DNA of 38,106 nt, taken from sequence record NZ_CP144727.1, one strand, 5' to 3'. The number at the start of each line of letters is the position of its first letter. Position 1 is the first letter of the stretch. This stretch comes from a plasmid. The position numbers were made by a program, and so were the translations under genes. The notes beneath the pieces are model-generated. The model was not told the origin of the DNA and did no database searches. It was given only the letters and a program-made list of their open reading frames with translations. Shown piece by piece: positions 1 to 27,641 of the stretch.

Positions 1-270
1 CTCGGCCAGGCCGCTGGCTTCCTCGCAATGGGTGCCATCCTCCAGCCGCAGTAGCTCGGCGATTTCGTCCAGGCTAAAGCCCAGCCGCTGGGCCGATTTC
101 ACGAACCGCACTCGTGTTACATCCGCCTCGCCATAGCGGCGAATGCTGCCATAGGGCTTGTCTGGCTCCGGCAGCAGGCCCTTGCGCTGGTAGAACCGGA
201 TGGTCTCCACATTGACCCCGGCCGCCTTGGCAAAAACGCCAATGGTCAGATTCTCAAAATTAATTTGCAT
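1..270 (-). CDS. merR: MerR Hg(II)-responsive regulator, N-terminal 90 codons (ATG at 270..268); gene runs off left edge, its 3' end is at 37921..38106
   Basis: Reverse translation [90 protein letters not shown] matches Tn21/Tn501 MerR; divergent to merT. Confidence 0.9.
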
Positions 271-341
271 ATCGCTTGACTCCGTACATAACTACGGAAG
301 TAAGCTTAAGCTATCCAAACCAAATTTGAAAGGACAAGCGT
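271..341. promoter_or_regulatory. mer operator/promoter: -35 TTGACT, MerR dyad TCCGTACATAACTACGGAAG in long spacer, -10 TAAGCT; RBS AGGACAAGCG before merT
   Basis: Dyad symmetry and spacing as in the Tn501/Tn21 merO/P between divergent merR and merT. Confidence 0.7.
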
Positions 342-752
342 ATGTCTGAACCACAAAAGTCTGAACCACAAAAGTCTGAACCACAAAAGTCTGAACCACA
401 AAAGTCTGAACCACAAAACGGGCGCGGCGCGCTCTTCGCCGGTGGGCTGGCCGCCATTCTTGCGTCGGCCTGCTGCCTGGGGCCGCTGGTTTTGATCGCC
501 TTGGGGTTCAGCGGGGCATGGATCGGCAACCTGACGGTGCTGGAACCCTATCGCCCGATCTTCATCGGCGCAGCGCTGGTCGCGCTGTTTTTCGCCTGGC
601 GGCGCATCTACCGCCCGGCGCAAGCCTGCAAACCGGGTGAGGTCTGCGCGATTCCCCAAGTGCGAGCTACTTACAAGCTCATTTTCTGGATCGTGGCCGC
701 GCTGGTCCTGGTCTCGCTCGGATTTCCCTACGTCATGCCATTTTTCTATTAA
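342..752 (+). CDS. merT: MerT mercuric ion transporter with 20-aa N-terminal (SEPQK)x4 insertion
   Basis: MSEPQ...NGRGALFAGGLAAILASACCLGPLVLIALGFSGAWIGNLTVLEPYRPIFIG..., CC motif in TM1, canonical MerT apart from repeat. Confidence 0.9.
   Translation: MSEPQKSEPQKSEPQKSEPQKSEPQNGRGALFAGGLAAILASACCLGPLVLIALGFSGAWIGNLTVLEPYRPIFIGAALVALFFAWRRIYRPAQACKPGEVCAIPQVRATYKLIFWIVAALVLVSLGFPYVMPFFY
345..419 (+). repeat. Perfect tandem array, 5 copies of 15-bp unit TCTGAACCACAAAAG (last copy ends AAAAC), in-frame in merT codons 2-26
   Basis: Direct reading of 345-419; canonical merT has a single copy (MSEPQNGRG). Confidence 0.9.
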
Positions 753-767
753 TCACAGGAGTTCATC

Positions 768-1043
768 ATGAAAAAACTGTTTGCCGCCCTCGCCCTCGCT
801 GCCGTTGTTGCCCCCGTGTGGGCCGCCACCCAGACCGTCACGCTGTCCGTGCCTGGCATGACCTGCGCCTCTTGCCCGATCACTGTCAAGCACGCGCTTT
901 CCAAGGTTGAGGGCGTGAGCAAGACCGACGTAAGTTTCGACAAGCGCCAGGCCGTCGTCACCTTCGACGATGCCAAGACCAACGTCCAGAAGTTGACCAA
1001 GGCGACCGAGGACGCGGGCTATCCGTCCAGCCTCAAACGCTGA
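768..1043 (+). CDS. merP: MerP periplasmic Hg(II)-binding protein (signal peptide, GMTCASC HMA motif)
   Basis: MKKLFAALALAAVVAPVWAATQTVTLSVPGMTCASCPITVK... Confidence 0.9.
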   Translation: MKKLFAALALAAVVAPVWAATQTVTLSVPGMTCASCPITVKHALSKVEGVSKTDVSFDKRQAVVTFDDAKTNVQKLTKATEDAGYPSSLKR

Positions 1044-1070
1044 TCCGTTAACCGAACTCGGGAGCGACAC

Positions 1071-3220
<2,150 letters not shown>

Positions 3221-3237
3221 GGAAAAGGAGGTGTTCA

Positions 3238-3603
3238 ATGAGCGCCTACACAGTGTCCCGGCTGGCCCTTGATGCCGGGGTGAGCGTGCATATCGTGCGC
3301 GACTACCTGCTGCGCGGATTGCTACGGCCGGTCGCGTACACCACGGGCGGCTACGGCTTGTTCGATGACACCGCGTTGCAACGGCTGCGCTTTGTACGGG
3401 CTGCCTTCGAAGCGGGTATCGGCCTGGACGCACTGGCGCGGCTGTGCCGGGCGCTGGATGCTGCGGACGGTGACGGTGCGTCTGCGCAGCTTGCCGTGTT
3501 GCGGCAACTCGTCGAGCGTCGGCGCGAGGCCCTGGCCAGCCTCGAAATGCAACTGGCCGCCATGCCAACCGAACCGGCACAGCACGCGGAGAGTCTGCCA
3601 TGA
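3238..3603 (+). CDS. merD: MerD secondary regulator (MerR-like HTH); ATG at 3238 preferred over upstream ORF-track start
   Basis: [31 protein letters not shown]... matches MerD; RBS AAAGGAGG upstream. Confidence 0.85.
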
Positions 3604-3836
3604 ACAGCCCAGAGCACTTGCCGTCTGAGACGCACAAACCGATCACCGGCTACTTGTGGGGCGCGCTGGCCGTGCTCACCTGTCCCTGCCATTTGCCGAT
3701 TCTCGCCATTGTGCTAGCCGGCACGACGGCCGGCGCGTTCATCGGGGAGCACTGGGGTATTGCAGCCCTCACGCTGACCGGCTTGTTTGTCCTGTCTGTG
3801 ACGCGGCTGCTGCGGGCCTTCAAGGGAAGATCATGA
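3600..3836 (+). CDS. merE: MerE small membrane Hg transporter
   Basis: 78 aa, [10 protein letters not shown] motif, 4-nt overlap with merD. Confidence 0.85.
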
Positions 3837-3901
3837 CCGCTTCCCAGCCAGCCGAGAGTGGGCAGCTTTGAGCTTCGCTACCAATCTGGAGGAGTACCAC
3901 C

Positions 3902-4114
3902 ATGAACGCAAACGCCCCGAACACTGCCAGTTGCACCACCTGCTGCGTATGCTGCAAAGAAATTCCGCTCGATGCCGCCTTCACCCCGGAAGGCGCGGAA
4001 TACGTCGAACATTTCTGCGGGCTGGATTGCTATGAACGCTTCCAGGCACGCGCCAAGGCCGCGACAGAATCTGACATTGCGCCTGTCCCTGGCGGTTCGC
4101 AGCCGTCAGATTGA
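3902..4114 (+). CDS. Small Cys-rich protein (CTTCCVCC...C..DC), DUF3330-like, in the urf2 position downstream of merE
   Basis: 70-aa ORF with strong RBS GGAGGAG 8 nt upstream; 8 Cys in metal-binding-like arrangement. Confidence 0.5.
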
Positions 4115-4119
4115 GGCAT

Positions 4120-4280
4120 ACCCTAACTTGATGTCAGGCAGGGCCGCGCCGCTTCGTCAGAATAGAGTCTGCTTTCCCATTTTTTGACACATGCCCGCGA
4201 AGGTTATAGATTTCAGCCTGACAGAAATGGGCTTTGAGGCACAACGGAACAGAAAGTGCACTTAAGCCGCCTTCAACCAA
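4120..4280. promoter_or_regulatory. Putative res (resolution) site and tnpR promoter region
   Basis: Inverted TGTCAGGC / GCCTGACAG motifs in the interval immediately upstream of tnpR, as in Tn21-subgroup res. Confidence 0.45.
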
Positions 4281-4289
4281 GGAGACATC

Positions 4290-4850
4290 GTGCAGGGGCA
4301 CCGCATCGGCTACGTCCGGGTCAGCAGCTTTGACCAGAACCCGGAACGCCAGCTGGAACAAACCCAGGTGAGCAAGGTGTTCACCGACAAGGCATCGGGC
4401 AAGGACACCCAGCGCCCCCAGCTCGAAGCGCTGCTGAGCTTCGTCCGCGAAGGCGATACAGTGGTGGTGCACAGCATGGATCGGCTGGCCCGCAACCTCG
4501 ATGACCTGCGTCGCTTGGTACAGAAGCTGACTCAGCGCGGCGTGCGCATCGAGTTCCTGAAGGAGGGCCTGGTGTTCACTGGCGAGGACTCGCCGATGGC
4601 CAACCTGATGCTGTCGGTGATGGGGGCCTTCGCTGAGTTCGAGCGCGCCCTGATCCGCGAGCGGCAGCGTGAGGGCATCGCCTTGGCCAAGCAGCGTGGC
4701 GCGTACCGGGGCCGCAAGAAAGCCCTGTCCGATGAGCAGGCTGCTACCCTGCGGCAGCGAGCGACGGCCGGCGAGCCCAAGGCGCAGCTTGCCCGCGAGT
4801 TCAACATCAGCCGGGAAACCCTCTACCAGTACCTCCGCACGGACGACTGA
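4290..4850 (+). CDS. tnpR: TnpR serine recombinase resolvase (Tn21/Tn501 subgroup)
   Basis: 186 aa, MQGHRIGYVRVSSFDQNPERQ..., catalytic Ser, C-terminal HTH. Confidence 0.9.
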   Translation: MQGHRIGYVRVSSFDQNPERQLEQTQVSKVFTDKASGKDTQRPQLEALLSFVREGDTVVVHSMDRLARNLDDLRRLVQKLTQRGVRIEFLKEGLVFTGEDSPMANLMLSVMGAFAEFERALIRERQREGIALAKQRGAYRGRKKALSDEQAATLRQRATAGEPKAQLAREFNISRETLYQYLRTDD

Positions 4851-4853
4851 CAC

Positions 4854-7781
4854 ATGCCGCGTCGCTTGATCCTCTCGGCCACGGAGCGGGACACCCTGCT
4901 TGCGCTGCCGGAAAGCCAGGATGACCTGATCCGCTACTACACCTTCAACGACTCCGACCTGTCGCTGATCCGCCAGCGACGCGGCGACGCCAACCGCCTC
5001 GGCTTCGCCGTGCAGCTCTGCCTGCTGCGCTACCCCGGTTACGCGCTGGGAACCGACAGCGAGCTGCCCGAGCCGGTCATCCTGTGGGTGGCGAAGCAAG
5101 TCCAGGCCGAGCCGGCGAGCTGGGCAAAGTACGGCGAGCGCGACGTGACCCGTCGCGAGCATGCCCAGGAACTGCGCACCTACCTGCAACTGGCCCCGTT
5201 CGGCCTGTCCGACTTCCGCGCCCTGGTGCGCGAGCTAACCGAGCTGGCCCAGCAGACCGACAAAGGCTTGCTGCTGGCCGGTCAGGCCCTGGAGAGCCTA
5301 CGGCAGAAACGACGCATCCTGCCGGCGCTGAGCGTGATTGACCGGGCCTGCTCGGAAGCCATTGCGCGAGCCAATCGGCGGGTCTACCGCGCCCTGGTCG
5401 AACCACTCACGGACTCGCATCGGGCCAAGCTGGACGAGCTGTTGAAGCTCAAGGCCGGCAGCAGCATCACCTGGTTGACCTGGCTGCGCCAGGCACCGCT
5501 GAAACCCAACTCTCGGCACATGCTGGAACACATCGAGCGGCTGAAGACATTTCAGTTGGTGGACTTGCCCGAAGGCCTGGGCCGGCACATCCACCAGAAC
5601 CGCCTGCTCAAGCTGGCCCGCGAGGGTGGGCAGATGACGCCCAAAGACCTCGGTAAGTTCGAGCCGCAGCGCCGCTACGCGACCCTGGCCGCCGTGGTGC
5701 TGGAGAGCACCGCGACCGTGATCGATGAGCTGGTCGATCTGCATGACCGCATCCTGGTCAAGCTGTTCAGCGGCGCGAAGCACAAGCATCAGCAGCAGTT
5801 CCAGAAGCAGGGCAAGGCGATCAACGACAAGGTGCGCCTGTACTCCAGGATCGGCCAGGCGCTGCTGGAAGCGAAGGAAAGCGGCAGCGACCCCTATGCC
5901 GCCATCGAGGCGGTGATTCCCTGGGACGAGTTCACCGAGAGCGTCAGCGAGGCCGAGCTGCTGGCCCGGCCGGAAGGCTTCGACCACCTGCACCTGGTCG
6001 GCGAGAACTTCGCCACCCTGCGCCGTTACACGCCGGCCTTGCTGGAGGTGCTGGAACTGCGCGCCGCGCCGGCCGCGCAAGGCGTGCTGGCAGCCGTGCA
6101 GACCCTGCGTGAGATGAACGCCGACAACCTGCGCAAGGTGCCGGCCGATGCACCCACGGCCTTCATCAAGCCGCGCTGGAAGCCGCTGGTGATCACCCCG
6201 GAAGGCCTCGACCGGAAATTCTACGAAATCTGCGCCCTGTCCGAGCTGAAGAACGCCCTGCGCTCCGGCGACATCTGGGTCAAGGGCTCGCGGCAGTTCC
6301 GCGACTTCGACGACTACCTGCTGCCGGCCGAGAAGTTCGCCGCACTCAAGCGCGAGCAGGCCCTGCCCCTGGCGATCAACCCGAACAGCGACCAGTACCT
6401 GGAAGAGCGTTTGCAGCTGCTGGACGAGCAGTTGGCCACCGTCACCCGCCTGGCCAAGGACAACGAGCTGCCCGATGCCATCCTCACCGAGTCAGGGCTG
6501 AAAATCACCCCGCTGGATGCGGCGGTGCCGGATCGGGCGCAGGCGCTGATCGACCAAACCAGCCAGTTACTGCCGCGCATCAAGATCACCGAACTGCTGA
6601 TGGACGTGGACGACTGGACGGGCTTCAGCCGCCACTTCACCCACTTGAAGGACGGGGCCGAGGCCAAAGACAGGACGTTGCTGCTGTCCGCAATCCTCGG
6701 TGATGCGATCAACCTCGGGCTGACCAAGATGGCCGAGTCGAGCCCCGGCCTGACCTACGCCAAGCTGTCCTGGCTGCAAGCCTGGCACATCCGCGACGAA
6801 ACCTATTCGGCGGCCTTGGCCGAGCTGGTCAACCACCAGTATCGCCACGCCTTTGCCGCCCACTGGGGCGACGGCACGACCTCATCCTCCGATGGCCAGC
6901 GCTTCCGCGCGGGTGGCCGGGGCGAGAGCACCGGGCACGTCAACCCGAAGTACGGTAGCGAGCCGGGACGGCTGTTCTATACCCATATCTCCGACCAGTA
7001 CGCGCCGTTCAGCACCCGCGTGGTGAATGTCGGCGTCCGCGATTCCACCTATGTGCTCGACGGCCTGCTGTACCACGAGTCCGACCTGCGGATCGAGGAG
7101 CACTACACCGACACGGCCGGCTTCACCGATCACGTCTTTGCCCTGATGCACCTGCTAGGCTTCCGCTTCGCGCCGCGCATCCGCGACCTCGGCGAAACCA
7201 AGCTGTACGTGCCGCAGGGCGTGCAAGCCTACCCGACGTTGCGCCCGCTGATCGGCGGCACCCTGAACATCAAGCACGTGCGTGCCCACTGGGACGACAT
7301 CCTGCGCCTGGCCAGCTCGATCAAGCAGGGCACCGTCACCGCCTCGCTGATGCTGCGCAAGCTCGGCAGCTACCCGCGCCAGAACGGACTGGCCGTGGCC
7401 CTGCGCGAGCTGGGCCGGATCGAGCGCACGCTGTTCATCCTGGACTGGCTGCAAAGTGTTGAACTGCGCCGCCGCGTGCATGCCGGCCTGAACAAAGGTG
7501 AGGCGCGCAACTCGCTGGCCAGGGCGGTGTTCTTCAACCGCCTTGGGGAAATCAGGGATCGGAGCTTCGAGCAGCAGCGCTACCGGGCCAGCGGCCTCAA
7601 CCTGGTGACGGCGGCTATCGTGCTGTGGAACACGGTGTACCTGGAACGCGCCACCCAGGGGTTGGTCGAGGCCGGCAAGCCGGTGGACGGCGAGCTGCTG
7701 CAATTCCTGTCGCCGCTGGGCTGGGAGCACATCAACCTAACCGGCGATCATGTACAGAACCTTAAGCGGCAAGCGAATTAA
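4854..7781 (+). pseudogene. tnpA: Tn3-family (Tn21 subgroup) transposase tnpA, interrupted after codon ...NLTGD by IS insertion; ORF reads 10 codons into the IS and stops
   Basis: 975-aa ORF typical of Tn21/Tn501 TnpA up to 7748; native C-terminus [23 protein letters not shown] resumes in frame at 11174. Confidence 0.85.
7739..7748. repeat. Left copy of 10-bp target site duplication AACCGGCGAT
   Basis: Identical 10-mer at 11164..11173 immediately outside the opposite IS end. Confidence 0.75.
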
Positions 7782-9137
7782 TAATACCGTCTAACGTGTT
7801 GTTTTGCTTGGATTTTCTCTGCCTACTCTTTTTGCCGTTTTTGGATAAATACACCATTGCCCACTCCAACTTCTCTGTTATTTCCTGCCACGCACCATGG
7901 ATGATGCTCGCCAATATCGGCATTAACCAAAGCGCGCTGTTTTTGGCAATCTTCAGCATCGATAACTCCGCGCTGCCAATCAGCGTCAGCGCCAGCCGAC
8001 GTTTGACCAGCAAGGCCAGCAAACTAGCCCAGATCAAGCCTTCCGCTATCGCTTTTTGTCGTGTCGCGAACGCCTTCAACCGGTTATGTGATTTCAGCTC
8101 TTTGAACAACAGTTCGATCTGCCAACGGCAACGATACAATGCCATCACCTTCTCGGCTGGCCATCGCTCACGCGGAAGATTGGTCATCCATATACAGAAC
8201 CGTTTTTCCTCTGCAAACCAACGTCTTATTAGTCGATATTTATACTTTCCCGAACTCACATCCAGATCCAGAACCTCGGCTCTGCAGCTTCTCCGATCGA
8301 TATCCTTGAGCTTTTTTCCGAGTAACTTGGGCATTTCCCTGCCGTCCTGTCGGTAAGCTGCCTGTACTTTGGGATTGAGATTTTGACTCCCTCTGACCAG
8401 ATAGCTTCCTTTGGCTTTGGTCACATCAGCAAAGTACTCGCGGCTGATGTAACCGGCATCCGCCAATAACAGTTTGTTATTTAACGAATTTGCGGCCGGA
8501 AGATGCTTGCGCTCCGATTCGGTATCCGCCGTGATACTCATCGATATCGGCGACTGGTCCAGCAAGGACATGGTCATATGACACTCTACCGCAGCGGGGC
8601 TGTGCTTATTGAATCGGCCCGGGAAATGTTCTGCCAATTGCGGATGTAACGCGAATGACGACCCGTCCTGCAGCAGTACCTGCTCAAAGCCTGCCAGTCC
8701 GTGGGCGTCCGGTAGACACTCCTTGAGGCGTAAGGCGATGGCTCGTTCAACCAGTGCGCGCATGAACAAGGGAAAACCCTGCTTGCGTAACTGGTTGTGA
8801 AAGGGTTTATACGCTATTTGGTCAGTATCATGGAGCTGCAACGCATTGAAATGGCGATGCAAACCAGCAATACCATCCACCTTGTCGCAACCAAGCCCTG
8901 AGAGCAGAGCCGGGAGTAGTCTCGCAGGCTGGATATCCCGGAGTCGCTGACAAAAACCGGTAAATTTACCGATCCGGTTGAGTTCAGAAGAGCTAAGAAG
9001 TTGCTTGAGGTACTGGGTTGCATTGATAATAGTCATGGCTTCGGGCGTGTCGGTTTTTTTTTGCGATTAAATCAGATCACAAACGAAGCCTTTTTTCTAT
9101 CTATTTCAATTGGTTGTAGCTAAAGATCCTGTACATG
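7749..9137 (-). mobile_element. IS4-family insertion sequence copy A (1389 bp), termini CATGTACAG[A/G]A[C/T]CTT[A/T]AGC inverted
   Basis: Terminal IRs at 7749-7769 and 9119-9137; single DDE transposase ORF. Confidence 0.7.
7762..9036 (-). CDS. IS4-family DDE transposase (424 aa)
   Basis: DAGY...D...[15 protein letters not shown] (Y-2-R-3-E-6-K signature of IS4/IS5 DDE transposases). Confidence 0.75.
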
Positions 9138-9192
9138 ACAGGTCACTGCAGCGGCCAAACTGTTGCCACATCTCAGTTCAGGAGGAAACGCA

Positions 9193-9564
9193 ATGACTCA
9201 GGAAAGGATCCAGACCCGCTACCCACTCGGCGGCCCCTTCGCCACCCAGGCTGAGCTGGAGCAGGCCATCACCCAGGCCATAACGACCCACAGACAAGAT
9301 TTCTTCCCTCTGCTGGAACGGCTGGTGGACGTGGGGGACACCCGGGTCAACCTCAGTCAGGAGAACCCGCTGCGGGTGCTCAGCATCGAACTCGCTGACG
9401 GCCGTGAAGGAGTGGCCCATATCAACTACGAGTCCAACTTCGCCGAGAGCTGCCTGATTATCAACGAATACGACCAGCACCAGACCAGCCTGGCCTTTCG
9501 CCTCGACGGGGATGCACTTATCTTCGACGTCGAACTGCCGATCGCGTGGAATTTCAATAACTGA
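9193..9564 (+). CDS. Hypothetical passenger protein, 123 aa (ATG at 9193 with GGAGG RBS; ORF-track start 9163 is TTG)
   Basis: Only ORF in the 641-bp segment between the two IS copies; acidic, no recognisable motif. Confidence 0.55.
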   Translation: MTQERIQTRYPLGGPFATQAELEQAITQAITTHRQDFFPLLERLVDVGDTRVNLSQENPLRVLSIELADGREGVAHINYESNFAESCLIINEYDQHQTSLAFRLDGDALIFDVELPIAWNFNN

Positions 9565-9626
9565 AGATTCAGCGGTGTAATGCCGCCTGGTTGCTACACC
9601 CGGTCAGCCAGCTCCCCTCACCCTAA

Positions 9627-9647
9627 CCCTCTCCCAAAGGGAGAGGG
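9627..9647 (+). other. Perfect 9-bp stem / 3-nt loop hairpin CCCTCTCCCAAAGGGAGAGGG downstream of passenger ORF (no T-tract)
   Basis: Direct reading. Confidence 0.4.
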
Positions 9648-9779
9648 GATCAGCCCGTGCCAACCTCCAGCCGTGGTAGTCACTCCATACTCTGCTGTTA
9701 TTTCAGGCGCCTGTAATCTTCCCCATATGGCTGTCATCTGAATAGCAATATCCAGCATATAGCCACCATAACCCTCACT

Positions 9780-11163
9780 CATGTACAGGATCTTTAGCGG
9801 CAACCAATTGAAATAGATATAAAAAAGGCTTCGTTTGTGATCTGATTTTATCGCCAAACAAAATCAACACGCGCGAAGCCTATGACTATTATCAACGCTA
9901 ATTACTATCTGGAGCAACTCTTGGCTCCCGCCGCACTCGAGCGCATTGCTCGGCTCTGCAAGTTTTGTCTGCGTCAGCGTGCCATTACCCCAGCCATGCT
10001 CGTACCTGCACTGCTGCGGGCCATGGGAGGCGACCAGGTCAATGACATTGCCGGTTTACACCGCCATTTCAATGCCTTGCAACTGGTAAACACCCATCAG
10101 GTTTCTTACAAACCGTTTCACAATCAGCTGCGCAAAGAGAGCTTTGCCCTGTTTATGAAAGCCCTGGTCGAGCGGGCCATCGCCTTGCGTATCGACCATC
10201 AACTCAAAGCAGCCTCCCTCGGCGCGTTCAAGCAGGTGTTACTGCACGATGGCACCTCCTTTGCGGTGCATCGGCGCCTTGCTGCTGATTTTCCCGGCCG
10301 GTTCAAGACCATCAGTCCGGCAGCTATCGAGTGCCATATGACCATGTCACTGTCGGAGCAGAGCCCGTTGTGCATGAGTGTGTCTGCCGATACCGCAGGG
10401 GAACGGCAATTTCTGCCTGAAGCCCACACGCTGACCAACTGCCTGCTGCTGGCTGACGCAGGTTACATTGACAGGGCTTGGTTTGAGCAGGTGAACGACG
10501 CTGGCGGATTTTATCTGGTGCGCGGCACGAAAAGCCTGAACCCCAAGATAATCCAAGCCTGGCGCGGTGATGGACGGGAAGTACCCAAGCTGGCGGGACT
10601 ATCTCTGAGAGAGGCCGGACGGCGACGCTGTCGGGCCGAGGTACTGGATATGGTGGTGAAGTCCGGCCAGGTCGAGTACCGGTTGATCCGGCGCTGGTTT
10701 GCTGAGGAAAAGCGGTTCTGTCTGTGGATGACGAACCTACCGCGAGCAGCATGGTCAGCAGAGCAGGTGATGAGCCTGTATCGCTGCCGTTGGCAGGTGG
10801 AGTTGTTATTTAAAGAGTGGAAATCGCACAACCGGCTCAAGGGGTTTGTGACGGGCGAGAAAGCGATTGCCGAGGGGTTGGTGTGGACGAGCCTGCTGTC
10901 GCTGGTGATGAAGAGACGGGTCGCGCAGAGTGTGATGAGTGGGGCGCTATCGATGCTGAAAGCGTCGAAGAACAGTGCGACGTGGTGGCTACCGCTATTG
11001 GAAGCAGTGGCCCATAGGGCGCTGACAGAAATAAGGGAAAGATTGGAATGGGCTGCCGATTATTTGGCCAAGAACGCCTGCCGAACCAAGCAGAGAAAGT
11101 CGATACAGAACAGGACCTTGGAAGGCGTTTTAAATGGACTCGCCGCTTAAGGTCCTGTACATG
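9780..11163 (+). mobile_element. IS4-family insertion sequence copy B (1384 bp), inverted relative to copy A
   Basis: Termini CATGTACAGGATCTTTAGC ... CCGCTTAAGGTCCTGTACATG; first ~75 bp nearly identical to inner end of copy A. Confidence 0.7.
9882..11150 (+). CDS. IS4-family DDE transposase (422 aa), ~60% identical to copy A transposase
   Basis: Same motifs (DAGY, YRCRWQVELLFKEWK). Confidence 0.75.
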   Translation: MTIINANYYLEQLLAPAALERIARLCKFCLRQRAITPAMLVPALLRAMGGDQVNDIAGLHRHFNALQLVNTHQVSYKPFHNQLRKESFALFMKALVERAIALRIDHQLKAASLGAFKQVLLHDGTSFAVHRRLAADFPGRFKTISPAAIECHMTMSLSEQSPLCMSVSADTAGERQFLPEAHTLTNCLLLADAGYIDRAWFEQVNDAGGFYLVRGTKSLNPKIIQAWRGDGREVPKLAGLSLREAGRRRCRAEVLDMVVKSGQVEYRLIRRWFAEEKRFCLWMTNLPRAAWSAEQVMSLYRCRWQVELLFKEWKSHNRLKGFVTGEKAIAEGLVWTSLLSLVMKRRVAQSVMSGALSMLKASKNSATWWLPLLEAVAHRALTEIRERLEWAADYLAKNACRTKQRKSIQNRTLEGVLNGLAA

Positions 11164-11173
11164 AACCGGCGAT
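11164..11173. repeat. Right copy of 10-bp target site duplication AACCGGCGAT
   Basis: See 7739..7748. Confidence 0.75.
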
Positions 11174-11245
11174 TACGTCTGGCGGCAGAGCCGCAGACTG
11201 GAAGACGGGAAGTTTCGGCCCTTACGGATGCCCGGAAAACCTTAG
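11164..11245 (+). pseudogene. tnpA: 3' remnant of interrupted tnpA (encodes [26 protein letters not shown])
   Basis: In-frame continuation of 4854..7748 once IS composite and one TSD copy are removed. Confidence 0.8.
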
Positions 11246-11278
11246 CGTACGATTTTTTCCGAATTCTGCGGGCTCCCC
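11241..11278. repeat. 38-bp terminal inverted repeat (IRtnp) of the Tn21/Tn501-subgroup transposon: CTTAGCGTACGATTTTTTCCGAATTCTGCGGGCTCCCC
   Basis: Matches Tn501-type IR; overlaps tnpA stop. Confidence 0.8.
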
Positions 11279-11330
11279 TATTAGCGTAGAGAAAAGTGTT
11301 GGACCATTTTGAGTCGTGGTTATGCGTGAA

Positions 11331-11407
11331 GACTATAGCGTCAGTCCAGTATGATTTCCCAATACCCTGTAGCTATAGTTTCGATAGCTTCGAATCGGCA
11401 TTGCAGG
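11331..11407 (+). repeat. Copy A of ~75-bp conserved element (GACTATAGC...GCTATAGTTTCGATAGC...TTGCAGG)
   Basis: ~70% identical to copies at 11592..11667 (inverted) and 20619..20688 (direct). Confidence 0.6.
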
Positions 11408-11591
11408 CGTATCCCCGTCAGCGGATTTCGAGCGGACGCCGTCGCTTGCCAACGTTGGTGTGAGACCGGCGGGCGAGATCGCCCCTGCCAACGCGACCGC
11501 TGAGAGGTCGACTCCTCAACCGCTTGGGCGCTTATCGCCTCCATCCGGATGCTCACCCGCCGAACAGCAATAAACCGCTATTTTCGATAAA

Positions 11592-20721: not shown

Positions 20722-21327
20722 CTAAGCGTTAGCTCTGTGTCGTTGCACGATGTCAGCGACGGTATTCTTGCTGATACCGAGCTCGCGTGCGATCCAGCGA
20801 TAGCTGCGTCCCTCGGCCCTCATCGCAACCACCTTAGGCAAAAGTCGGTCTGATTTTGGTCGCACTCCGGCCTGACGACCAAGCCTCTTACCACGTGCCT
20901 TCGCAACAGCAAGGCCTGACTTGACCCGCTCGCTGATGAGATCCCGCTCAAACTCCGCAATGCCGGAAAGAAACGTCGCCAGCATTCGTCCATACGGCGA
21001 CGAAAGATCGAACGCCATTCCATTCATGGCTATCACGGAAACCTTCCAGTTCTCCAGTTCACGTAGCGTATTGAGCAGATCGAGCGTCGAGCGCCCCCAC
21101 CGGGAAAGCTCAGTGACCAGGATTGCATCAATTTGTCTGGACTGGGCAAGCGCCAGGACTTTCTTTCGCTCGGCCCGGTCGAGTTTAGTTCCTGAACCTG
21201 TTTCCTTAAATATTCCCACCACGTCGTAGCCGGCACGGCCGGCGAAGGCTCGCAGATCAAATTCCTGGCGTTCACAAGACTGATCCGCTGTTGAAACCCG
21301 GCAGTAAATGGCGGCACGATGTCCCAA
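20722..21327 (-). CDS. tnpR: Serine recombinase resolvase TnpR
   Basis: IYCRVSTADQ...RQ catalytic motifs, C-terminal HTH. Confidence 0.85.
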   Translation of the reverse strand: MGHRAAIYCRVSTADQSCERQEFDLRAFAGRAGYDVVGIFKETGSGTKLDRAERKKVLALAQSRQIDAILVTELSRWGRSTLDLLNTLRELENWKVSVIAMNGMAFDLSSPYGRMLATFLSGIAEFERDLISERVKSGLAVAKARGKRLGRQAGVRPKSDRLLPKVVAMRAEGRSYRWIARELGISKNTVADIVQRHRANA

Positions 21328-21421
21328 TTGAACCCTCCTGGATTTTTGTATCGGAACGCCCTGATTTATATGGGCTGGCTGTTGTCCAAAACAGACTATA
21401 CTTCAAAAGGGACGAATTTGT
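21328..21421. promoter_or_regulatory. Probable res site / divergent promoters between tnpR and tnpA
   Basis: Position as in Tn3-type elements. Confidence 0.35.
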
Positions 21422-24319
21422 ATGTCACGACGCCATATTTTCACCGAACGGCAGCGAGCAGCGCTGTTCGATCTGCCCACGGACGAACTGTCGCTACTGA
21501 AGTTCTACACGCTGGGCGATGATGACCTGGAAAACATTAGGCAGCGCCGCAGACCGGAAAACAGGATTGGCTTTGCCCTGCAACTTTGTGCCTTACGATA
21601 TCCGGGCCGTGCACTGGCTCCTGGTGAGATGATCCCGCGTGAAGTCCTTTCCTTCGTCGGTGCTCAGCTTGGAGTTCCGGCTGATGCGCTTCTCACTTAT
21701 GCCACACGGCGCCAAACCCGTCAGCAGCACATGGACACGCTGCGCGAAATTTACGGCTACAAGACCTTCACGGGCCGTGGTGCCCGTGATCTGCGGGAGT
21801 GGACTTTCGGCCAGGCCGAAGATGCCAGATCAAACGAGGATCTTGCTCATCGTTTTATTGTGCGGTGTCGGGAAACTTCCACCATTCTGCCCGCAGTATC
21901 GACAATCGAGCGCTTGTGCGCGGATGCTCTGGTCGCCGCTGAGCGGCGGATTGAAACGCGGATTGCGGAAAATTTAACAGCGGATGTTCGCGATCACCTG
22001 GACAAACTTCTGAGTGAAATGCTCGCCGGCAATATCAGTCGTTTCATCTGGCTTCGCAACTTCGAGGTTGGTAACAACTCGGCTGCTGCTAACCGTTTGC
22101 TCGACAGGCTCGAATTTCTGCGTACCCTGAATATCAATCATAGTGCTTTGGCCAGCATACCTGCCCATCGCATTGCCCGGCTGCGTCGGCAGGGTGAACG
22201 CTACTTCACCGACGGTTTGCGTGACATCACTTCGGACCGCCGCTGGGCGATCCTTGCCGTCTGTGTTGTGGAGTGGGAAGCGGCGATTGCTGATGCCATA
22301 GTCGAAACCCATGACAGGATCGTAGGAAAAACCTGGCGGGAAGCGAAGCGCCAGCATGACGAAACAATTTCCGGCTCTAAAGCCACACTCACGGATACGA
22401 TCCGTACCTTCACCGCGCTGGGAGCTTCGTTGCTTGAGGCCCGCAGTGACGGAACCCCGCTGGAGATGGCTGTCGCCAGTTCGGTTGCATGGGACCGGCT
22501 CGCTCAACTGGTAGCGACAGGGACTCAACTCAGCAACACGCTAGCCGATGAGCCTCTTGCATATGTCGGGCAGGGATACCATCGCTTTCGTCGTTATGCG
22601 CCCCGCATGTTGCGCTGTCTGAAGCTCGAAGCCGCGCCGGTCGCCGGACCATTGGTAGCAGCAGCTTTGTCGATCGGAGAGATGAAAGGTGTTGCATCGC
22701 CAGAAAGGCGTTTCCTGCGGCCCAGCTCCAAATGGAACCGTCATTTACGAGCTCAGGAAAAAGGAGATACCCGTCTTTGGGAAGTGGCGGTACTCTTTCA
22801 CCTCCGGGATGCTTTTCGTTCCGGAGATGTCTGGCTCGCTCATTCGCGCCGCTATGGTGACCTCAAGCAGGTACTGGTGCCGATGATCGCGGCGCAGGAA
22901 AATGCAAAACTGGCCGTGCCTTCCAACCCACAGGATTGGCTGGCAGACAGAAAGGCGCGACTCACGATCGCTCTTAAGCGGCTGGCCCGGGCTGCCCGTA
23001 ACGGCACTATTCCGCACGGTAGCATAGAAGATGGAACGTTGCGGATCGACAGGTTGACAGCAGACGTGCCGGATGGTGCCGAGGCACTCATACTGGATCT
23101 GTATCGCCGAATGCCGTCCGTTCGGATTACCGACATGCTGCTTGAAGTTGATGCAGCCCTTGGTTTCACAGATGCGTTTACCCATCTGAGAACCGGGGCT
23201 CCATGTCGCGACCGGATCGGTCTGCTCAACGTCCTGCTCGCTGAAGGGCTCAATCTGGGCCTGCGTAAGATGGCGGAAGCTACAAACACGCATGATTACT
23301 GGCAGCTCTCACGCCTTGCCCGCTGGCATGTTGAAAGCGAAGCCATGAACCAGGCATTGGCAATTGTGGTGGCCGCGCAGGGTAAACTGCCGATGTCACG
23401 CGTCTGGGGGATGGGCACGTCAGCATCGAGCGATGGTCAGTTTTTCCCGACAGCGCGGCATGGCGAAGCCATGAACATGGTCAATGCCAAATATGGTTCT
23501 GTTCCCGGCCTCAAAGCGTATACTCACGTAAGCGACCAGTTCGCGCCATTCGCTTGTCAGTCGATCCCGGCGACCGTGAGCGAGGCACCGTATATTCTCG
23601 ATGGACTACTGATGAACGAGGTCGGTCGCCATGTTCGCGAACAGTATGCCGATACAGCAGGATTCACCGACCATTTGTTCGGAGCCAGTAGCCTGCTCGG
23701 CTACAATCTCGTTCTGCGAATCAGGGATCTGCCATCGAAGCGGTTGTACGTATTTAATCCCGATACGACCCCCAGGGAGTTACGCAAGTTGGTAGGTGGA
23801 AAAGCCCGGGAGGATCTTATCGTTGCGAACTGGCCTGATATTTTCCGTTGTGCCGCGACGATGACCGCTGGCAAAATCAGGCCCAGCCAACTCCTGCGCA
23901 AGCTCGCTTCTTACCCACGACAAAACAACCTTGCAGTTGCGCTTCGTGAAGTTGGTCGTATTGAACGGACCCTTTTCATTATTGAGTGGATCCTGGATAC
24001 GGACATGCAGCGGCGTGCTCAGATCGGTCTTAACAAGGGAGAGGCCCACCATGCGCTCAAAAATGCGCTCCGTATCGGGAGGCAGGGGGAAATTCGCGAT
24101 CGCACGACAGAGGGGCAGCACTACCGAATCGCTGGGCTCAATTTATTGACTGCGGTGATCATTTACTGGAATACCGTCCATCTTGGTCATGCCGTCACGG
24201 AGCGGCGGAACGAAGGGTTGGATGTTCCCCCTGAATTTCTTCCCCACATATCCCCATTGGGCTGGGCGCACATTCTACTGACTGGCGAATATCTTTGGCC
24301 CAAGGAACCGAAAGCTTAG
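21422..24319 (+). CDS. tnpA: Tn3-family DDE transposase TnpA (965 aa)
   Basis: Full-length homolog of the 4854.. TnpA; C-terminus ISPLGWAHILLTGEY. Confidence 0.9.
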   Translation: MSRRHIFTERQRAALFDLPTDELSLLKFYTLGDDDLENIRQRRRPENRIGFALQLCALRYPGRALAPGEMIPREVLSFVGAQLGVPADALLTYATRRQTRQQHMDTLREIYGYKTFTGRGARDLREWTFGQAEDARSNEDLAHRFIVRCRETSTILPAVSTIERLCADALVAAERRIETRIAENLTADVRDHLDKLLSEMLAGNISRFIWLRNFEVGNNSAAANRLLDRLEFLRTLNINHSALASIPAHRIARLRRQGERYFTDGLRDITSDRRWAILAVCVVEWEAAIADAIVETHDRIVGKTWREAKRQHDETISGSKATLTDTIRTFTALGASLLEARSDGTPLEMAVASSVAWDRLAQLVATGTQLSNTLADEPLAYVGQGYHRFRRYAPRMLRCLKLEAAPVAGPLVAAALSIGEMKGVASPERRFLRPSSKWNRHLRAQEKGDTRLWEVAVLFHLRDAFRSGDVWLAHSRRYGDLKQVLVPMIAAQENAKLAVPSNPQDWLADRKARLTIALKRLARAARNGTIPHGSIEDGTLRIDRLTADVPDGAEALILDLYRRMPSVRITDMLLEVDAALGFTDAFTHLRTGAPCRDRIGLLNVLLAEGLNLGLRKMAEATNTHDYWQLSRLARWHVESEAMNQALAIVVAAQGKLPMSRVWGMGTSASSDGQFFPTARHGEAMNMVNAKYGSVPGLKAYTHVSDQFAPFACQSIPATVSEAPYILDGLLMNEVGRHVREQYADTAGFTDHLFGASSLLGYNLVLRIRDLPSKRLYVFNPDTTPRELRKLVGGKAREDLIVANWPDIFRCAATMTAGKIRPSQLLRKLASYPRQNNLAVALREVGRIERTLFIIEWILDTDMQRRAQIGLNKGEAHHALKNALRIGRQGEIRDRTTEGQHYRIAGLNLLTAVIIYWNTVHLGHAVTERRNEGLDVPPEFLPHISPLGWAHILLTGEYLWPKEPKA

Positions 24320-24361
24320 GGTGTCATTTCGCCCTCAGCCGGAACCGACCCCAGTATCGGT

Positions 24362-24685
24362 AATGCACACGATTTTAAAAATGGGCGACAACTGGCAGCC
24401 TGGCTGGGACTAACGCCATCGCAGTACAGCAGTGGTGGGAAATCAAAGCTTGGCAGGATAACTAAAGCTGGCGATTCGTATCTGCGAACGCTACTGGTTC
24501 AGGGGGCTCGTTCGGTTCTGATTGGTGCCGAGAAAAGGACTGATTTATTCAGTCGTTGGGTCTGTTCACTGGTCGATCGCAGAGGATACTGGCGTGCCGT
24601 TGTAGCCATCGCCGCCAAAAACGCAAGGCTGTGCTGGGCATCATTGCATTACGGTGATGATTTCAGGCTGTACTCAGCCAGCTAA
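24362..24685 (+). pseudogene. 3' fragment (C-terminal ~107 aa) of an IS110-family (IS4321/IS5075-like) transposase
   Basis: Translation ...FKNGRQLAAWLGLTPSQYSSGGKSKLGRITKAGDSYLRTLLVQGARSVLIGAEKRTDLFSRWV... is the conserved IS110-family C-terminal domain; no N-terminal part present. Confidence 0.7.
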
Positions 24686-24970
24686 AGCACGAAACAAAAT
24701 AACCATCTGACCTGCAATTCGTTGATGATAAAGGGTTAGACCCCGTGAGGCCTATCTGGCTATTGTACAGGATATACGTATCCGCTTAACGAACAAGAAC
24801 CTCACGCGCGTCTTTCATCAGGGTCCGAATCGATGACGATTCATCATGGCCGTTTATAGTACCGCAGTCTCTCCCCTTTATTTTTACTGAAGAGCAGACA
24901 GAAACCATAAACACCGGCGTTGACACGCCGGGGAAGCCCTTATAGTACAATAATTTTCGATATCCAAACT

Positions 24971-25150
24971 GACCCCTATAAGGACAACCACGGGCGAAAC
25001 ACCGGATGATGAACATATTGCCCGGCTGTCACCGCTGATGCACGGGCATATCAATATGCTGGGGCATTACACATTCACGCTGCCGGAGGATATTCTGAAG
25101 GGAGAGCTTCGCCCTTTAAATATTAATATAAACAATGAAGTATCTTCTTA
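24971..25150 (+). pseudogene. 3' fragment of a third Tn3-family tnpA (…DDEHIARLSPLMHGHINMLGHYTFTLPEDILKGELRPLNI…)
   Basis: Matches conserved TnpA C-terminal pattern [17 protein letters not shown]...FRPL and runs into an IR. Confidence 0.55.
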
Positions 25151-25184
25151 ACGTGGTTTTTTACATCATTGACCTTCAAACCCC
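25147..25184. repeat. Solo 38-bp Tn3-family terminal IR (CTTAACGTGGTTTTTTACATCATTGACCTTCAAACCCC)
   Basis: GGGG...ACGTTAAG architecture of Tn3/Tn1000-type IRs. Confidence 0.6.
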
Positions 25185-25249
25185 GTTTAAAGCGACTCAG
25201 GGGCTTCTGTACGCGGTCGGAGTGGTCACGTCGAGGCTTTGCCGAAGAG

Positions 25250-25470
25250 GGGCGTATCTCCGCGTAAGCGGCCCCTAGGGGCGCTTACGAGCGTATTCAT
25301 CATGACTTCCAGCGGAGAGACTGACAGCAGCGTCAGTCGTTAGTTACATCATCCATCTTAAAAGCAATGTTGTTCCCGGCCTTCGGCCGGGGGCGCTTTT
25401 CAGTGGTGGGGAGGGGCACCTGGCCGGCAAACCGGCGCCGGTTTTATGATGAACTTCCTTTTGAATGCTG
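25250..25470. other. Cluster of GC-rich stem-loops (GCGTAAGCGGCCCCTAGGGGCGCTTACG; CCCGGCCTTCGGCCGGG+GCGCTTTT; GCCGGCAAACCGGCGCCGGTTTT), terminator-like
   Basis: Direct reading; no coding capacity. Confidence 0.35.
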
Positions 25471-25681
25471 TAACTAACTTAGTTCTTCCGCTGGGGCCCG
25501 ACGCGAAGCGATGGGAGCTACTTTTATCTGAGCGACGCGGACGCGTGCGGCCACTGTAAGCGAAGGCCTCATTGAGTTATTCACAGAGCCTGACCTGCCC
25601 CCAGAGTTAGATACAACCTTCAGTTAGTAATGTCGGTTGGTTTTTCTTCATATTTCCCTCAGTTCAATGCCAGGAACAGGG

Positions 25682-26577
25682 TGGATTGGCCCCTATATTT
25701 CCATACACTTTTTATCACTTAACCCATTACTGGTTCGCCGCCGCAGATATTCCCGTGGCGAACGATACCCCAGTGCACTATGCGGATGCCATTCGTTGTA
25801 ATGTTCGAAGGCCTCCGCAAGGTTCTTTACCGCTTTTAACCCGTCGGGTTTCGGCATGATACTTATGTAATCGCGCTTCATCGTTTTCACGAAGCTCTCT
25901 GCCATCCCGTTGCTTTCCGGGCTACGTACCGCCGTATGTTCAGGCTCCAGTCCTACCATTCTGGCGAACTGACGCGTCTGATAAGAACGGTAGGCTGGAC
26001 CGTTGTCTGTCAGCCACTCAACTGGGGATGTCGGCAGGCTGTTACCGAAGCGACGCTCCACGGCACCCAGCATGACGTCCTGCACGGTTTCACTGTCATA
26101 TCCACCGTTACTGGCCGCCCAGTAAAGTGCCTCGCGATCGCAACAGTCCAGAGCGAACGTGACCCGCAGTTTTTCACCGTTATCACAGCTGAACTCGAAG
26201 CCGTCAGAGCACCACCGCTGGTTACTTTCTCCAACGGCCACTTTCCCTGTATGCGCCCGCTTCGATGGCGGTATTTCCGGTTTACGCTCAAGCAGCAGCG
26301 CATTCTGACGCATGATGCGGTATACACGTTTGGCATTGATCACCGCCATGTCGTCAGTTTCTGATTGTCTGCGCAGCAGTGCCCATACCCGACGATAACC
26401 ATAGGTGGGCAGATCACCGATAACGGTATGGATACGGGCCAGCGCGTCAGTATCATCAGGCTTGCGCTTGCACCGACGATCCTGCCAGTCCTTCGACCGA
26501 CGGGCCATGGCATGCAGTTGCGCACGTGAGACCCGGAGGCAACGACTGACAAGGCTTATTCGCCATCCTCTTATCAT
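25682..26577 (-). mobile_element. IS2-like (IS3 family) fragment: right end with IR TGGATTGGCCCCTATATTTCCA and 5'-truncated orfB; orfA and left end missing
   Basis: IS2 IRR match at 25682-25703; junction with unrelated DNA near 26578. Confidence 0.8.
25693..26577 (-). CDS. insD: IS2 InsD (orfB) integrase-core transposase, N-terminally truncated
   Basis: [20 protein letters not shown]...DDTD...RWCSDGFEF...[13 protein letters not shown] matches IS2 InsD. Confidence 0.85.
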
Positions 26578-26800
26578 AAATGATAAAAGCGATCAGACCG
26601 CCAATACCAATGAACCAGCCAGCAATTAAAGCTGACCATAAAGGCCATAGCGAAAAAGTGTTTTTAACAAGATACGGTATCAGGTATTTAGCCGTTGATG
26701 CGTCAATACCGTAGGTAAATTTAGCAACTAGAAACCATACCATTATTGGCGGCAAAGTAATTGCAAATAAAAATGCTAAGCCTCTTTCTCTATCTTCCAT
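26456..26800 (-). CDS. Small membrane protein (2-3 TM); C-terminus replaced by IS2-derived sequence (disrupted)
   Basis: ATG 26800 with AAGGAG RBS, 1 nt after upstream stop; hydrophobic segments. Confidence 0.45.
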
Positions 26801-26801
26801 T

Positions 26802-27218
26802 TCAGCGCTCCTTTTTTGGTTCCCAGACTTTATAGCCGTTACGTTCAACCTCTGCTTTTGCCGCTTTGGTTTTACCCGGTTCTGCTATCGAACGTAGGAG
26901 GATCAGCGTTTCAATAGCGAGTGATTCATGCAACATCATCTGTCCTGCCGGTGGGAATGTTACGCCAGATAGCGTTTCGGTTATTGCCTTCAGCTCATCG
27001 CGCAGTGAGCCAAAATCCGCATCTGAAGCACGGTCAAAAAGGTAATCCAGTTTGCGATTTACGTCGCTCAGCTGGTTGGTAACTATTTTCAACCCGGACT
27101 CCAGATCACCTGGGCCAGCTTCAAGGCAGCGCCGCAGATACTCTGACCGATTACCACCTGAAACCAGGTCTATATAGGCCAAAAGTTCATCTGATACTTT
27201 TGCGGTTATTGTTGGCAT
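26802..27218 (-). CDS. RHH-type DNA-binding protein, MobC-like (mobilisation accessory) candidate
   Basis: N-terminal RHH-like TITAKVSDELLAYIDLVSGGNRSEYLRRCLE and LKIVTNQLSDVNRKLD resembling the MobC NLNQIAR motif. Confidence 0.35.
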   Translation of the reverse strand: MPTITAKVSDELLAYIDLVSGGNRSEYLRRCLEAGPGDLESGLKIVTNQLSDVNRKLDYLFDRASDADFGSLRDELKAITETLSGVTFPPAGQMMLHESLAIETLILLRSIAEPGKTKAAKAEVERNGYKVWEPKKER

Positions 27219-27518
27219 TCAGTCCTCACTTTGTGCATTTTTTAAACGAAAAAAGGGTGTCTAATACGGTGAAATCATAGTATTACCAAAGTAATAAATA
27301 AAAAATGTTTTAAATCAGTAAGTTAGATTAGATTTGTAATACCTGGGTAATACCGCAGCATGGTTAAATTTGGTTTTTTTCTTTTAAATCAGTGAGATAG
27401 CGTGATTTATCACGCTGCGTTAGGTGTATAGCAGGTTAAGGGATAAAAAATCATCTTTTTTTGGTAGGGCGATCTCCGTAGGTTAAGGGTCATTTGGCTA
27501 AAAAGCGTCCTATTCTTT

Positions 27519-27542
27519 GATGGTCATGCTTGCATGACCATC
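27519..27542. repeat. Perfect 11-bp inverted repeat with 2-bp spacer GATGGTCATGC-TT-GCATGACCATC
   Basis: Direct reading. Confidence 0.7.
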
Positions 27543-27556
27543 TGAGCAACCAAAAA

Positions 27557-27641
27557 CTACAGATAAACTACAGATAAACTACAAAAAACGTGACAGACTA
27601 CAAATAGACTACAAGAAAACTACAGATAAACTACAAAACTC
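27557..27641 (+). repeat. Array of seven 11-bp direct repeats (CTACAGATAAA x3, CTACAAAAAAC, CTACAAATAGA, CTACAAGAAAA, CTACAAAACTC), one 8-bp interruption
   Basis: Direct reading; helical-period spacing typical of centromere/iteron arrays. Confidence 0.7.

Follow-up and report, generated by a model that had tools for sequence, protein, structure and literature searches.

The 3.4-kb insert that interrupts a Tn3-family transposase gene in plasmid record NZ_CP144727.1 is a real small composite transposon and one that is already known. The whole 38,106-bp stretch of DNA that was analyzed is referred to below as the window. The inserted block is almost certainly the ISApu1-orf7-ISApu2 composite, i.e. 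the "transposon cassette" of pFBAOT6, also called Tn6583, which would have moved by transposition and then been inherited. The insertion of the Aeromonas plasmid pFBAOT6 (2004) has been published as a transposon cassette that a target duplication encloses. It is described, in exactly this position, in PMC5756416, where the host element is Tn1721 and the passenger is likewise given as 642 bp, and also in PMC4785139; the name Tn6583 was given in PMC11265224. The block aligned with the pFBAOT6 insertion over 3415/3415 bp with 1 mismatch, a synonymous difference at position 8230 in the ISApu2 transposase gene, at which the window also differs from all other copies. The order and orientation of the components and the 642-bp passenger with its 372-nt ORF are the same as in the Tn6583/pFBAOT6 cassette. 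The reference copy of Tn6583 is that of p116965-KPC; the copy compared here is from a related IncP-6 KPC plasmid and is 2 nt from that of the window.

The identity to pFBAOT6 is not confined to the insert. Positions 4114-20688 of the window (16.6 kb) are 100% identical to pFBAOT6, with the same insertion site and 10-bp duplication. The left junction is common to 15 records and the right junction to 33, and pFBAOT6 and several other plasmids share the site, the 10-mer and 9.4 kb of downstream DNA at 100% identity. Because the site and its flanks are shared in this way, the arrangement was inherited within a larger segment. Both transposase genes are intact and the element has been active in several replicons, which would suit a recent transposition into this particular plasmid; against the shared junctions and flanks, and the published description of the same insertion in pFBAOT6, such a local event is nevertheless very improbable.

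The block, positions 7749-11163 (3415 bp), lies between two copies of the 10-mer AACCGGCGAT. The preliminary description of this DNA had these copies as exact and bounding the block, which is indeed the case. The 10-mer was found at just these two places when both strands of the window were checked, and an exact match at two such fixed positions would be expected by chance with a probability of about 1e-6. The same description proposed excising 7749-11173 in silico. This deletion gave a single 988-aa ORF starting at 4854, a full-length TnpA that matched NCBIfam NF033527 (Tn3-family transposase) over model positions 2-954/954 with 1289 bits. The excised junction, carrying one copy of the 10-mer, is matched without a break by at least 5000 plasmid records, annotated as TnAs1-family; among the empty-site matches listed, 4943 are at ≥99% identity. 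These matches exclude a pre-existing double 10-mer at the site. The features of the region are collected in the table.

Table. Features of the Tn6583 insertion and of its host transposon (positions in the window; IR, inverted repeat)
Feature	Position	Strand	Remarks
Host tnpR, serine resolvase, 186 aa	4290..4850	+	res upstream at ~4100-4250
Host tnpA 5' part, codons 1-965	4854..7748	+	Sequence beside the insertion shared at 100% identity with the TnAs1/Tn1721-type tnpA of thousands of plasmids
Target duplication of 10 bp, left copy, AACCGGCGAT	7739..7748		Exact match to 11164-11173
ISApu2, 1389 bp	7749..9137	-	IRR-type end 7749 (outer), IRL-type end 9137 (inner)
ISApu2 transposase, 424 aa, intact	7762..9036	-	Pfam DDE_Tnp_1 (PF01609), 96.5 bits
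Passenger, 642 bp, a trapped Aeromonas chromosome fragment	9138..9779		Matches to Aeromonas DNA
orf372 (= orf7), 372 nt, 123-aa protein	9193..9564	+	AGGAGG ribosome-binding site ahead
REP-like palindromic repeat in passenger	9605..9689		Passenger nt 468-552
ISApu1, 1384 bp	9780..11163	+	IRL-type end 9780 (inner), IRR-type end 11163 (outer)
ISApu1 transposase, 422 aa, intact	9882..11150	+	Pfam DDE_Tnp_1 (PF01609), 77.9 bits
Target duplication of 10 bp, right copy, AACCGGCGAT	11164..11173		Exact match to 7739-7748
Host tnpA 3' part, last 23 codons and stop	11174..11245	+	In-silico excision
38-bp Tn1721/Tn1722-type terminal IR, GGGGAGCCCGCAGAATTCGGAAAAAATCGTACGCTAAG	11241..11278	-	Sole such IR in window

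The outer termini of the block are inverted, CATGTACAGAACCTTAAGCGGCAAG and CATGTACAGGACCTTAAGCGGCGAG, with 22/24 of their first bases identical. The block contains two more such ends, at 9137 and 9780, and all four IS ends begin with CATGTACAG. The start of the second element had previously been placed one base off, the C of its CATG being at position 9780. The sequences on either side are AACCGGCGAT and ACAGGTCACT for ISApu2, and AACCCTCACT and AACCGGCGAT for ISApu1; thus, as first noted from the sequence, neither element has a duplication of its own. A different delimitation of the IS ends, which includes the flanking T and A and leaves an 8-bp duplication, was rejected, as two of the duplications found, CAGCTTCACT and TGGCGGGAAT, lack an initial A.

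The view that two diverged, inverted IS4-family elements enclose the cargo was supported by profile matches, the YREK signature and the divergence of the two sequences. Both transposases matched the NCBIfam model transpos_IS4_1 (246.7 bits for ISApu2 and 237.4 bits for ISApu1, cut-off 115), and both contain the signature Y-(2)-R-(3)-E-(6)-K, which in ISApu1 reads YRCRWQVELLFKEWK and in ISApu2 likewise spans a 15-residue stretch. The two elements are 68% identical at the nucleotide level overall and 91% over the inner 102 nt, and their transposases share 63% amino-acid identity. Each element has inverted ends of its own, with 74% complementarity across 34 nt in ISApu2 and 91% across 23 nt in ISApu1. 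The ISApu2 annotation is carried in pFBAOT6 and many other plasmids, and the identity of ISApu1 was also taken from database annotation. Both elements have a DDE/YREK transposase and terminal inverted repeats, and the 10-bp duplications around the composite fall within the ~8-13 bp range given for the IS4 family (Table 1 of PMC2266710). Each of them also occurs alone elsewhere, and two solo copies of ISApu2 are flanked by 10-bp and 9-bp duplications.

Within the IS4 family, ISApu1 and ISApu2 resemble the ISH8 subgroup, which has CAT ends and 10-bp repeats (IS4-family survey, De Palmenaer et al. 2008, PMC2266710): they have 5'-CAT ends with T at position 15, a length of ~1.4 kb, 10-bp direct repeats and the YREK motif, although their end pattern partly fits the IS231 subgroup too. 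A relative with 79.6% identity bears the label "ISH8E" in one database record. Since the text of the survey and its supplements includes neither ISApu1 nor ISApu2, their placement in ISH8 draws solely on end sequence and repeat length.

The DNA between the two elements was compared with Aeromonas sequences. Nucleotides 13-638 of the passenger align with an A. lusitana chromosome at 84% identity, and nucleotides 13-642 are 100% identical to a plasmid of A. rivipollensis in which no ISApu elements lie alongside. The REP-like repeat matches separate places in three Aeromonas chromosomal loci. The product of orf372 has 213 homologues, and all of those bearing an organism name are from Aeromonas; the best 120 of the 213 are 68-100% identical. 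Judging by these matches, Aeromonas chromosomes are the native home of the passenger. The orf372 product has no Pfam or NCBIfam match. Its AlphaFold model, of acceptable quality (pLDDT 77.8), has an alpha+beta fold; the matches obtained for it from the PDB with Foldseek were NTF2/SnoaL-like and none was significant (best E = 0.14, TM ~0.3), and these model-based comparisons support no functional conclusion. The native neighbors of the orf372 region in A. lusitana encode a POT-family transporter, an HNH protein and topoisomerase IV subunit A, and give no functional clue to the passenger gene. No known selectable gene was found in the passenger by Pfam, NCBIfam or fold comparison.

The preliminary description held that the block had moved as one composite and suggested a database search for the same IS pair and cargo at loci with different 10-bp duplications. 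Four such loci were found. The 3415-bp unit lies (i) in IncP-6 KPC plasmids, within the duplication ATTTCGCCTT, (ii) and (iii) in two small ColE-like plasmids, within AGGGGTTGTT and CAGCTTCACT, and (iv) in the chromosome of A. media DSM 4881, within AGTTGATCAT. These make five sites in all, and the copies differ by 1-4 nt. Altogether, the unit was found in replicons of Aeromonas, Enterobacteriaceae and Pseudomonas, in at least 144 plasmid records. As expected of a composite transposon, a passenger lies between two IS, the duplication surrounds the whole unit rather than a single IS, and one and the same unit occurs at different sites with different duplications. That the unit recurs at four sites besides that of the window, within a different duplication each time, indicates that it moves as one. 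We infer this movement from the footprints that it left; no transposition assay of the unit is reported in PMC4785139, PMC11265224 or PMC5756416.

The same observations bear on two other ways in which the block could have formed. Recombination between homologous IS copies, or cointegrate resolution between them, in place of transposition from the outer ends, would be consistent with the copy in pFOX-7a, which has no duplication, and homologous recombination has been invoked in PMC4785139 for the larger KPC-bearing structure containing the composite. It cannot, however, create a 10-bp target repeat abutting the IS termini, as found at five independent sites, and at the site in the window the empty-site matches exclude flanking repeats that were already there; we give this origin hardly any credence. 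The missing duplication in pFOX-7a would fit a later rearrangement beside qacEdelta1. Two independent insertions that came close together in tnpA by chance, leaving a block that is not mobile as a unit, might be suggested by two IS of different species, each found alone elsewhere, but this has already been refuted by the identical block found elsewhere four times, each time within a different duplication, and is equally at odds with the single duplication around the whole block, with the Aeromonas chromosomal origin (not tnpA) of the intervening 642 bp and with the precise restoration of tnpA by whole-block excision, so that its probability is negligible.

As present, the host tnpA ORF extends to position 7781 and encodes 975 aa. 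It keeps 965/988 residues and Tn3-family model positions 2-950/954, while the last 23 residues, comprising a conserved Y-x-W and a non-conserved tail, are replaced by 10 IS-encoded ones. As the replacement is limited to the last 23 residues, the inactivation of tnpA claimed earlier is presumed, and the interrupted TnpA is probably crippled. Rescue in trans by the intact TnpA at 21422-24319, which had been suggested, is unlikely and was rejected, since this protein belongs to Tn5403 and has 37% identity with the restored TnpA, and since the 38-bp IR of Tn5403 matches the Tn1721-type IR at 20/38 positions.

The interrupted gene had also been assigned to a mercury transposon. In evolutionary terms it is of Tn1721/TnAs1 type, and res is where the mer genes were attached to it. 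From ~4107 on, the arm made up of tnpR, tnpA and IRR is 100% Tn1721/TnAs1-type, and the junction with mer lies inside res: identity to pFBAOT6 starts at 4098-4114, and the mer-side and Tn1721-side matches overlap at ~4107-4137. Like Tn1721/Tn1722 (TnAs1-type), the host element has a 38-bp IRR and codes, when restored, for a 988-aa TnpA. Unlike them, it is broken by Tn6583 and has its left arm swapped at res for merRTPCADE-urf2. On its left side the host transposon has the Tn1721 orfI arm in pFBAOT6 and the mer module in the window. The window starts within merR and so does not include the left end of the host; the IR beside merR in the sibling plasmid pKp1050-2 matches the Tn1721-type IRR at 29/38 positions.

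These comparisons suggest the following history. The transposase genes are read outward from the inverted ISApu2 and ISApu1, which enclose the 642-bp Aeromonas fragment, and the two outer ends, both of IRR type, would presumably be paired by one or both DDE transposases. The 3415-bp block would then move by IS4-family cut-and-paste, with a 10-bp staggered cut at the target; here the footprints are what was observed, and the mechanism is ascribed to the block from its family. In an ancestor, the block was inserted after codon 965 of the 988-codon Tn1721/Tn1722 tnpA. The interrupted transposon and adjacent DNA then spread by other means, the window inheriting 16.6 kb, with the left transposon arm exchanged at res for the mer module. 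A further reading, in which Tn6583 is a working heterologous composite (the transposase of one IS synapsing its own end with that of its 63%-identical partner) and its spread is aided by the conserved Aeromonas gene orf372 and not due to hitch-hiking alone, appears unlikely as a whole; orf372 may in that case act, e.g., as a transposition modulator or host-fitness factor.

Tn10 and Tn5, the classical composites of the IS4 family, likewise consist of two inverted IS4-family elements around a passenger, and a DDE/YREK transposase is common to them and Tn6583. They move from their two outer ends by cut-and-paste and duplicate roughly one helical turn of target DNA, and the Tn5/Tn10 transposase is read inward from the outside end. 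Tn6583 differs from them in that (i) its IS are distinct species (68% nucleotide and 63% amino-acid identity) and not near-identical, (ii) its duplication is 10 bp and not 9, (iii) its passenger has no known selectable gene, and (iv) its transposases are read outward, both outer ends being transposase-distal. It is thus a clean natural case of a composite of two different IS species without selectable cargo. The copy in the window raises no new biological question, and its value is mainly for annotation, as a marker of a segment that came from an Aeromonas IncU plasmid, has travelled widely and now occurs in plasmids of Enterobacteriaceae. In IncP-6 plasmids the composite adjoins blaKPC-2, and its recognition therefore aids in tracing the assembly of resistance regions.

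The insertion within tnpA comprises 3415 bp (7749-11163) lying between two copies of the 10-mer AACCGGCGAT (7739-7748 and 11164-11173), and direct reading of 7600-11300 together with a script found no third copy on either strand of the window. Its first bases are CATGTACAGAACCTTAAGCGGC and its last ones the reverse complement of CATGTACAGGACCTTAAGCGGC, and IS ends of the same type are also present internally, at 9137 and 9780. The flanks of the left element, IS-A (AACCGGCGAT versus ACAGGTCACT), and of the right element, IS-B (AACCCTCACT versus AACCGGCGAT), do not match, and neither IS has a duplication of its own, as had been claimed. In silico removal of 7749-11173 produced a single 988-aa ORF starting at 4854, which covers all 954 positions of the NCBIfam Tn3-family transposase model. 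The excised junction with one copy of the 10-mer, used as a query against plasmid records, gave an unbroken match in at least 5000 of them (≥99% identity for 4943 of the matches listed). The exact 10-mers, the restored TnpA and the empty-site matches thus bear out the preliminary description at both points on which it could have failed, the exactness of the repeats and the reading frame after excision; the feature is real, and its core interpretation is correct.

Features of the insertion and of the region downstream
Feature	Coordinates	Details
IS-A (ISApu2)	7749-9137	1389 bp; ORF of 424 aa, minus strand
Middle segment (passenger)	9138-9779	642 bp
Passenger ORF	9193-9564	372 nt, 123 aa; AGGAGG ribosome-binding site upstream
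IS-B (ISApu1)	9780-11163	1384 bp; ORF of 422 aa, plus strand
Tn5403, complete	20689-24352	tnpR minus, tnpA plus; perfect 38-bp IRs
IS2-like (IS3-family) transposase	25693-26577	
RepE	29146-29949	
IS1 fragment	30629-31132	
ParA and ParB	31686-33865	
IS6-family transposase	34003-34725	
Ferritin-like protein	35052-35552	
IS5-family transposase	35869-36849	

The composite is already known from three descriptions. In the Aeromonas IncU plasmid pFBAOT6, Tn1721 carries a 3415-bp insertion, a transposon cassette whose ISApu1 and ISApu2 lie in opposite orientations, which carries a segment of 642 bp and is enclosed by a target duplication (PMC5756416); ISApu1-orf7-ISApu2 was found in a Tn3-family tnpA of IncP-6 KPC plasmids (PMC4785139); and the name Tn6583 was given to ISApu2-orf372-ISApu1 (PMC11265224). 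The present analysis adds five independently duplicated target sites, the origin of the passenger from an Aeromonas chromosome, a putative chimera at res in the host transposon, and corrections concerning inactivation and trans-complementation.

Records with a Tn6583-like block annotate IS-A as ISApu2 and IS-B as ISApu1. Both ORFs encode IS4-family DDE transposases, each with a Pfam DDE_Tnp_1 match, the Y-(2)-R-(3)-E-(6)-K signature and an NCBIfam transpos_IS4_1 score (246.7 bits for ISApu2, 237.4 bits for ISApu1) above the 115-bit cut-off. The elements are 68% identical in nucleotide and 63% in protein sequence. Their inner, transposase-proximal 102 nt are 91% identical and the remainder about 60-78%; this inner similarity may stem from conservation of regulatory or binding sequence, or the two elements may have undergone exchange. 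The 102-nt stretches (IRL plus transposase leader) occupy 9037-9138 and 9779-9880. Two solo copies of ISApu2 are flanked by duplications of 10 bp (TGGCGGGAAT) and 9 bp (AGTGTTCCA). An IS4-family survey, in which neither ISApu1 nor ISApu2 is named, lists the ISH8 subgroup with CAT ends and repeats of 10 bp, and IS231 with repeats of 10-12 bp (PMC2266710); in their ends and repeat lengths, both elements fit this pattern.

A megablast search of 72,556 plasmids identified 144 records with at least 80% of the 3415 bp, most at ≥99% identity, in Klebsiella, Aeromonas, Citrobacter, Enterobacter, Escherichia, Pseudomonas and other hosts, the best match being pFBAOT6 (46538-49952). Position 8230 of the window differs from all six other copies compared, a synonymous change in Leu269 of the ISApu2 transposase (CTA versus CTC). 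Copies from differing contexts were fetched and their flanks read. The flanking repeat is AACCGGCGAT in the window, pFBAOT6 and the sibling plasmid pKp1050-2, ATTTCGCCTT in IncP-6 KPC-2 plasmids and a Pseudocitrobacter contig (L013), AGGGGTTGTT and CAGCTTCACT in ColE-like plasmids of 6761 and 6974 bp, respectively, and AGTTGATCAT in the Aeromonas media DSM 4881 chromosome. At five sites the same 3415 bp thus lie between exact 10-bp repeats, with a different sequence at each; these footprints show that the composite transposed from its outer ends and confirm that the IS pair and its cargo moved as one unit, with other duplications at other loci. The copy in pFOX-7a (4001-7415), which abuts qacEdelta1, has no repeat (flanks …GGGCTTATT and AATGGCTACT…) and was presumably rearranged after insertion. 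An A-N8-T pattern was observed in four of the five composite duplications, and T is the last base in all six 10-bp duplications, composite and solo, which may point to a weak symmetric preference in target choice.

In the composite both transposases are intact and the inverted ends are paired, and 10-bp duplications flank it at several sites. By analogy with Tn5 and Tn10 of the IS4 family, it would be excised at its two outer ends by DDE-catalysed cut-and-paste and reinserted across a 10-bp staggered target cut. Both outer ends are transposase-distal (IRR-type), with two differences in the first 24 positions, and either transposase could plausibly bind both. Although the composite would work like Tn5 and Tn10, it differs from them in its two distinct IS species, duplications of 10 rather than 9 bp, outward-reading transposase genes and lack of known selectable cargo.

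The 642-bp passenger contains a single ORF. Its homologues (213; identity 68-100% for the best 120) come, wherever an organism is named, from Aeromonas, mostly from large chromosomal contigs. Nucleotides 13-638 of the passenger align at 84% with a single A. lusitana chromosomal stretch, flanked by genes for a POT-family transporter and topoisomerase IV subunit A, and plasmid p1 of A. rivipollensis DSM 24593 (5958-7809) holds 630 nt of the passenger at 100% identity, with neither ISApu1 nor ISApu2. The passenger is thus an Aeromonas chromosomal fragment, trapped as the two IS inserted around it. The p1 copy is split by a 1212-bp IS, with 10 bp of the passenger duplicated, and bracketed by further IS copies (338-aa and 375-aa ORFs on either side); IS seem to have targeted this locus repeatedly. 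The 123-aa protein had no Pfam or NCBIfam match, and none of the PDB matches of its AlphaFold model (pLDDT 77.8, pTM 0.73; beta-alpha-alpha-beta4 fold) was significant (best E = 0.14); nothing in these three comparisons points to a selectable trait. A palindromic REP-like element of ~85 nt within the passenger (9605-9689; …CCCTCTCCCAAAGGGAGAGGGG…) recurs in several Aeromonas chromosomal loci at unrelated positions.

Over 150 bp to either side, the sequence next to the insert matches TnAs1-family tnpA of thousands of plasmids at 100% identity, and a Tn1721-type 38-bp IR, GGGGAGCCCGCAGAATTCGGAAAAAATCGTACGCTAAG, lies at 11241-11278; by sequence, the interrupted gene is a Tn1721/Tn1722 (TnAs1)-type tnpA. 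Since 4114-20688 is 100% identical to pFBAOT6, the insertion was inherited within ~16.6 kb and not made in the window's plasmid. Upstream, a mer module (1-4137; partial merR, merT, P, C, A, D, E and urf2) abuts a tnpR-tnpA arm that is 100% Tn1721/TnAs1-type, and the matches switch within about 4107-4137, in res, which suggests resolvase-mediated arm exchange producing a chimeric transposon. The gene had been assigned to a mercury transposon; mer genes do adjoin it, but they are of a different lineage. In pKp1050-2 the left and right IRs match at only 29 of 38 positions; the left IR lies outside the window. The interrupted ORF retains 965 native residues, followed by 10 IS-encoded ones, and model positions 2-950 of 954, so the proposed inactivation has to be softened: the insertion breaks the conserved LTG(D/E)-Y-x-W motif, common to the Tn5403 TnpA, and function is likely lost. 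The segment 11279-20688 matches the beginning of the '28-kb insertion' adjoining Tn1721 in pFBAOT6 at 100% identity and carries non-resistance genes (Zn-dependent alcohol dehydrogenase, heme-binding protein, MFS transporter, RidA, CorA, GST, MsrA/MsrB).

The TnpA at 21422-24319, proposed to complement the host transposon in trans, is the Tn5403 transposase. Its identity to the restored host TnpA is 37%, and the Tn5403 and Tn1721-type IRs match at 20 of 38 positions. Cross-complementation in the Tn3 family is known only among close relatives, e.g. Tn501 and Tn1721, and rescue by Tn5403 is consequently unlikely. The Tn5403 flanks (CTTCA versus AGTAT) show no 5-bp target duplication, and identity to pFBAOT6 ends exactly at its left IR (20688), suggesting a Tn5403-associated rearrangement and not a simple insertion. 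The remaining segment (24353-38106) consists of plasmid backbone and IS clutter, and its backbone genes indicate that the window derives from an enterobacterial RepE-type plasmid.
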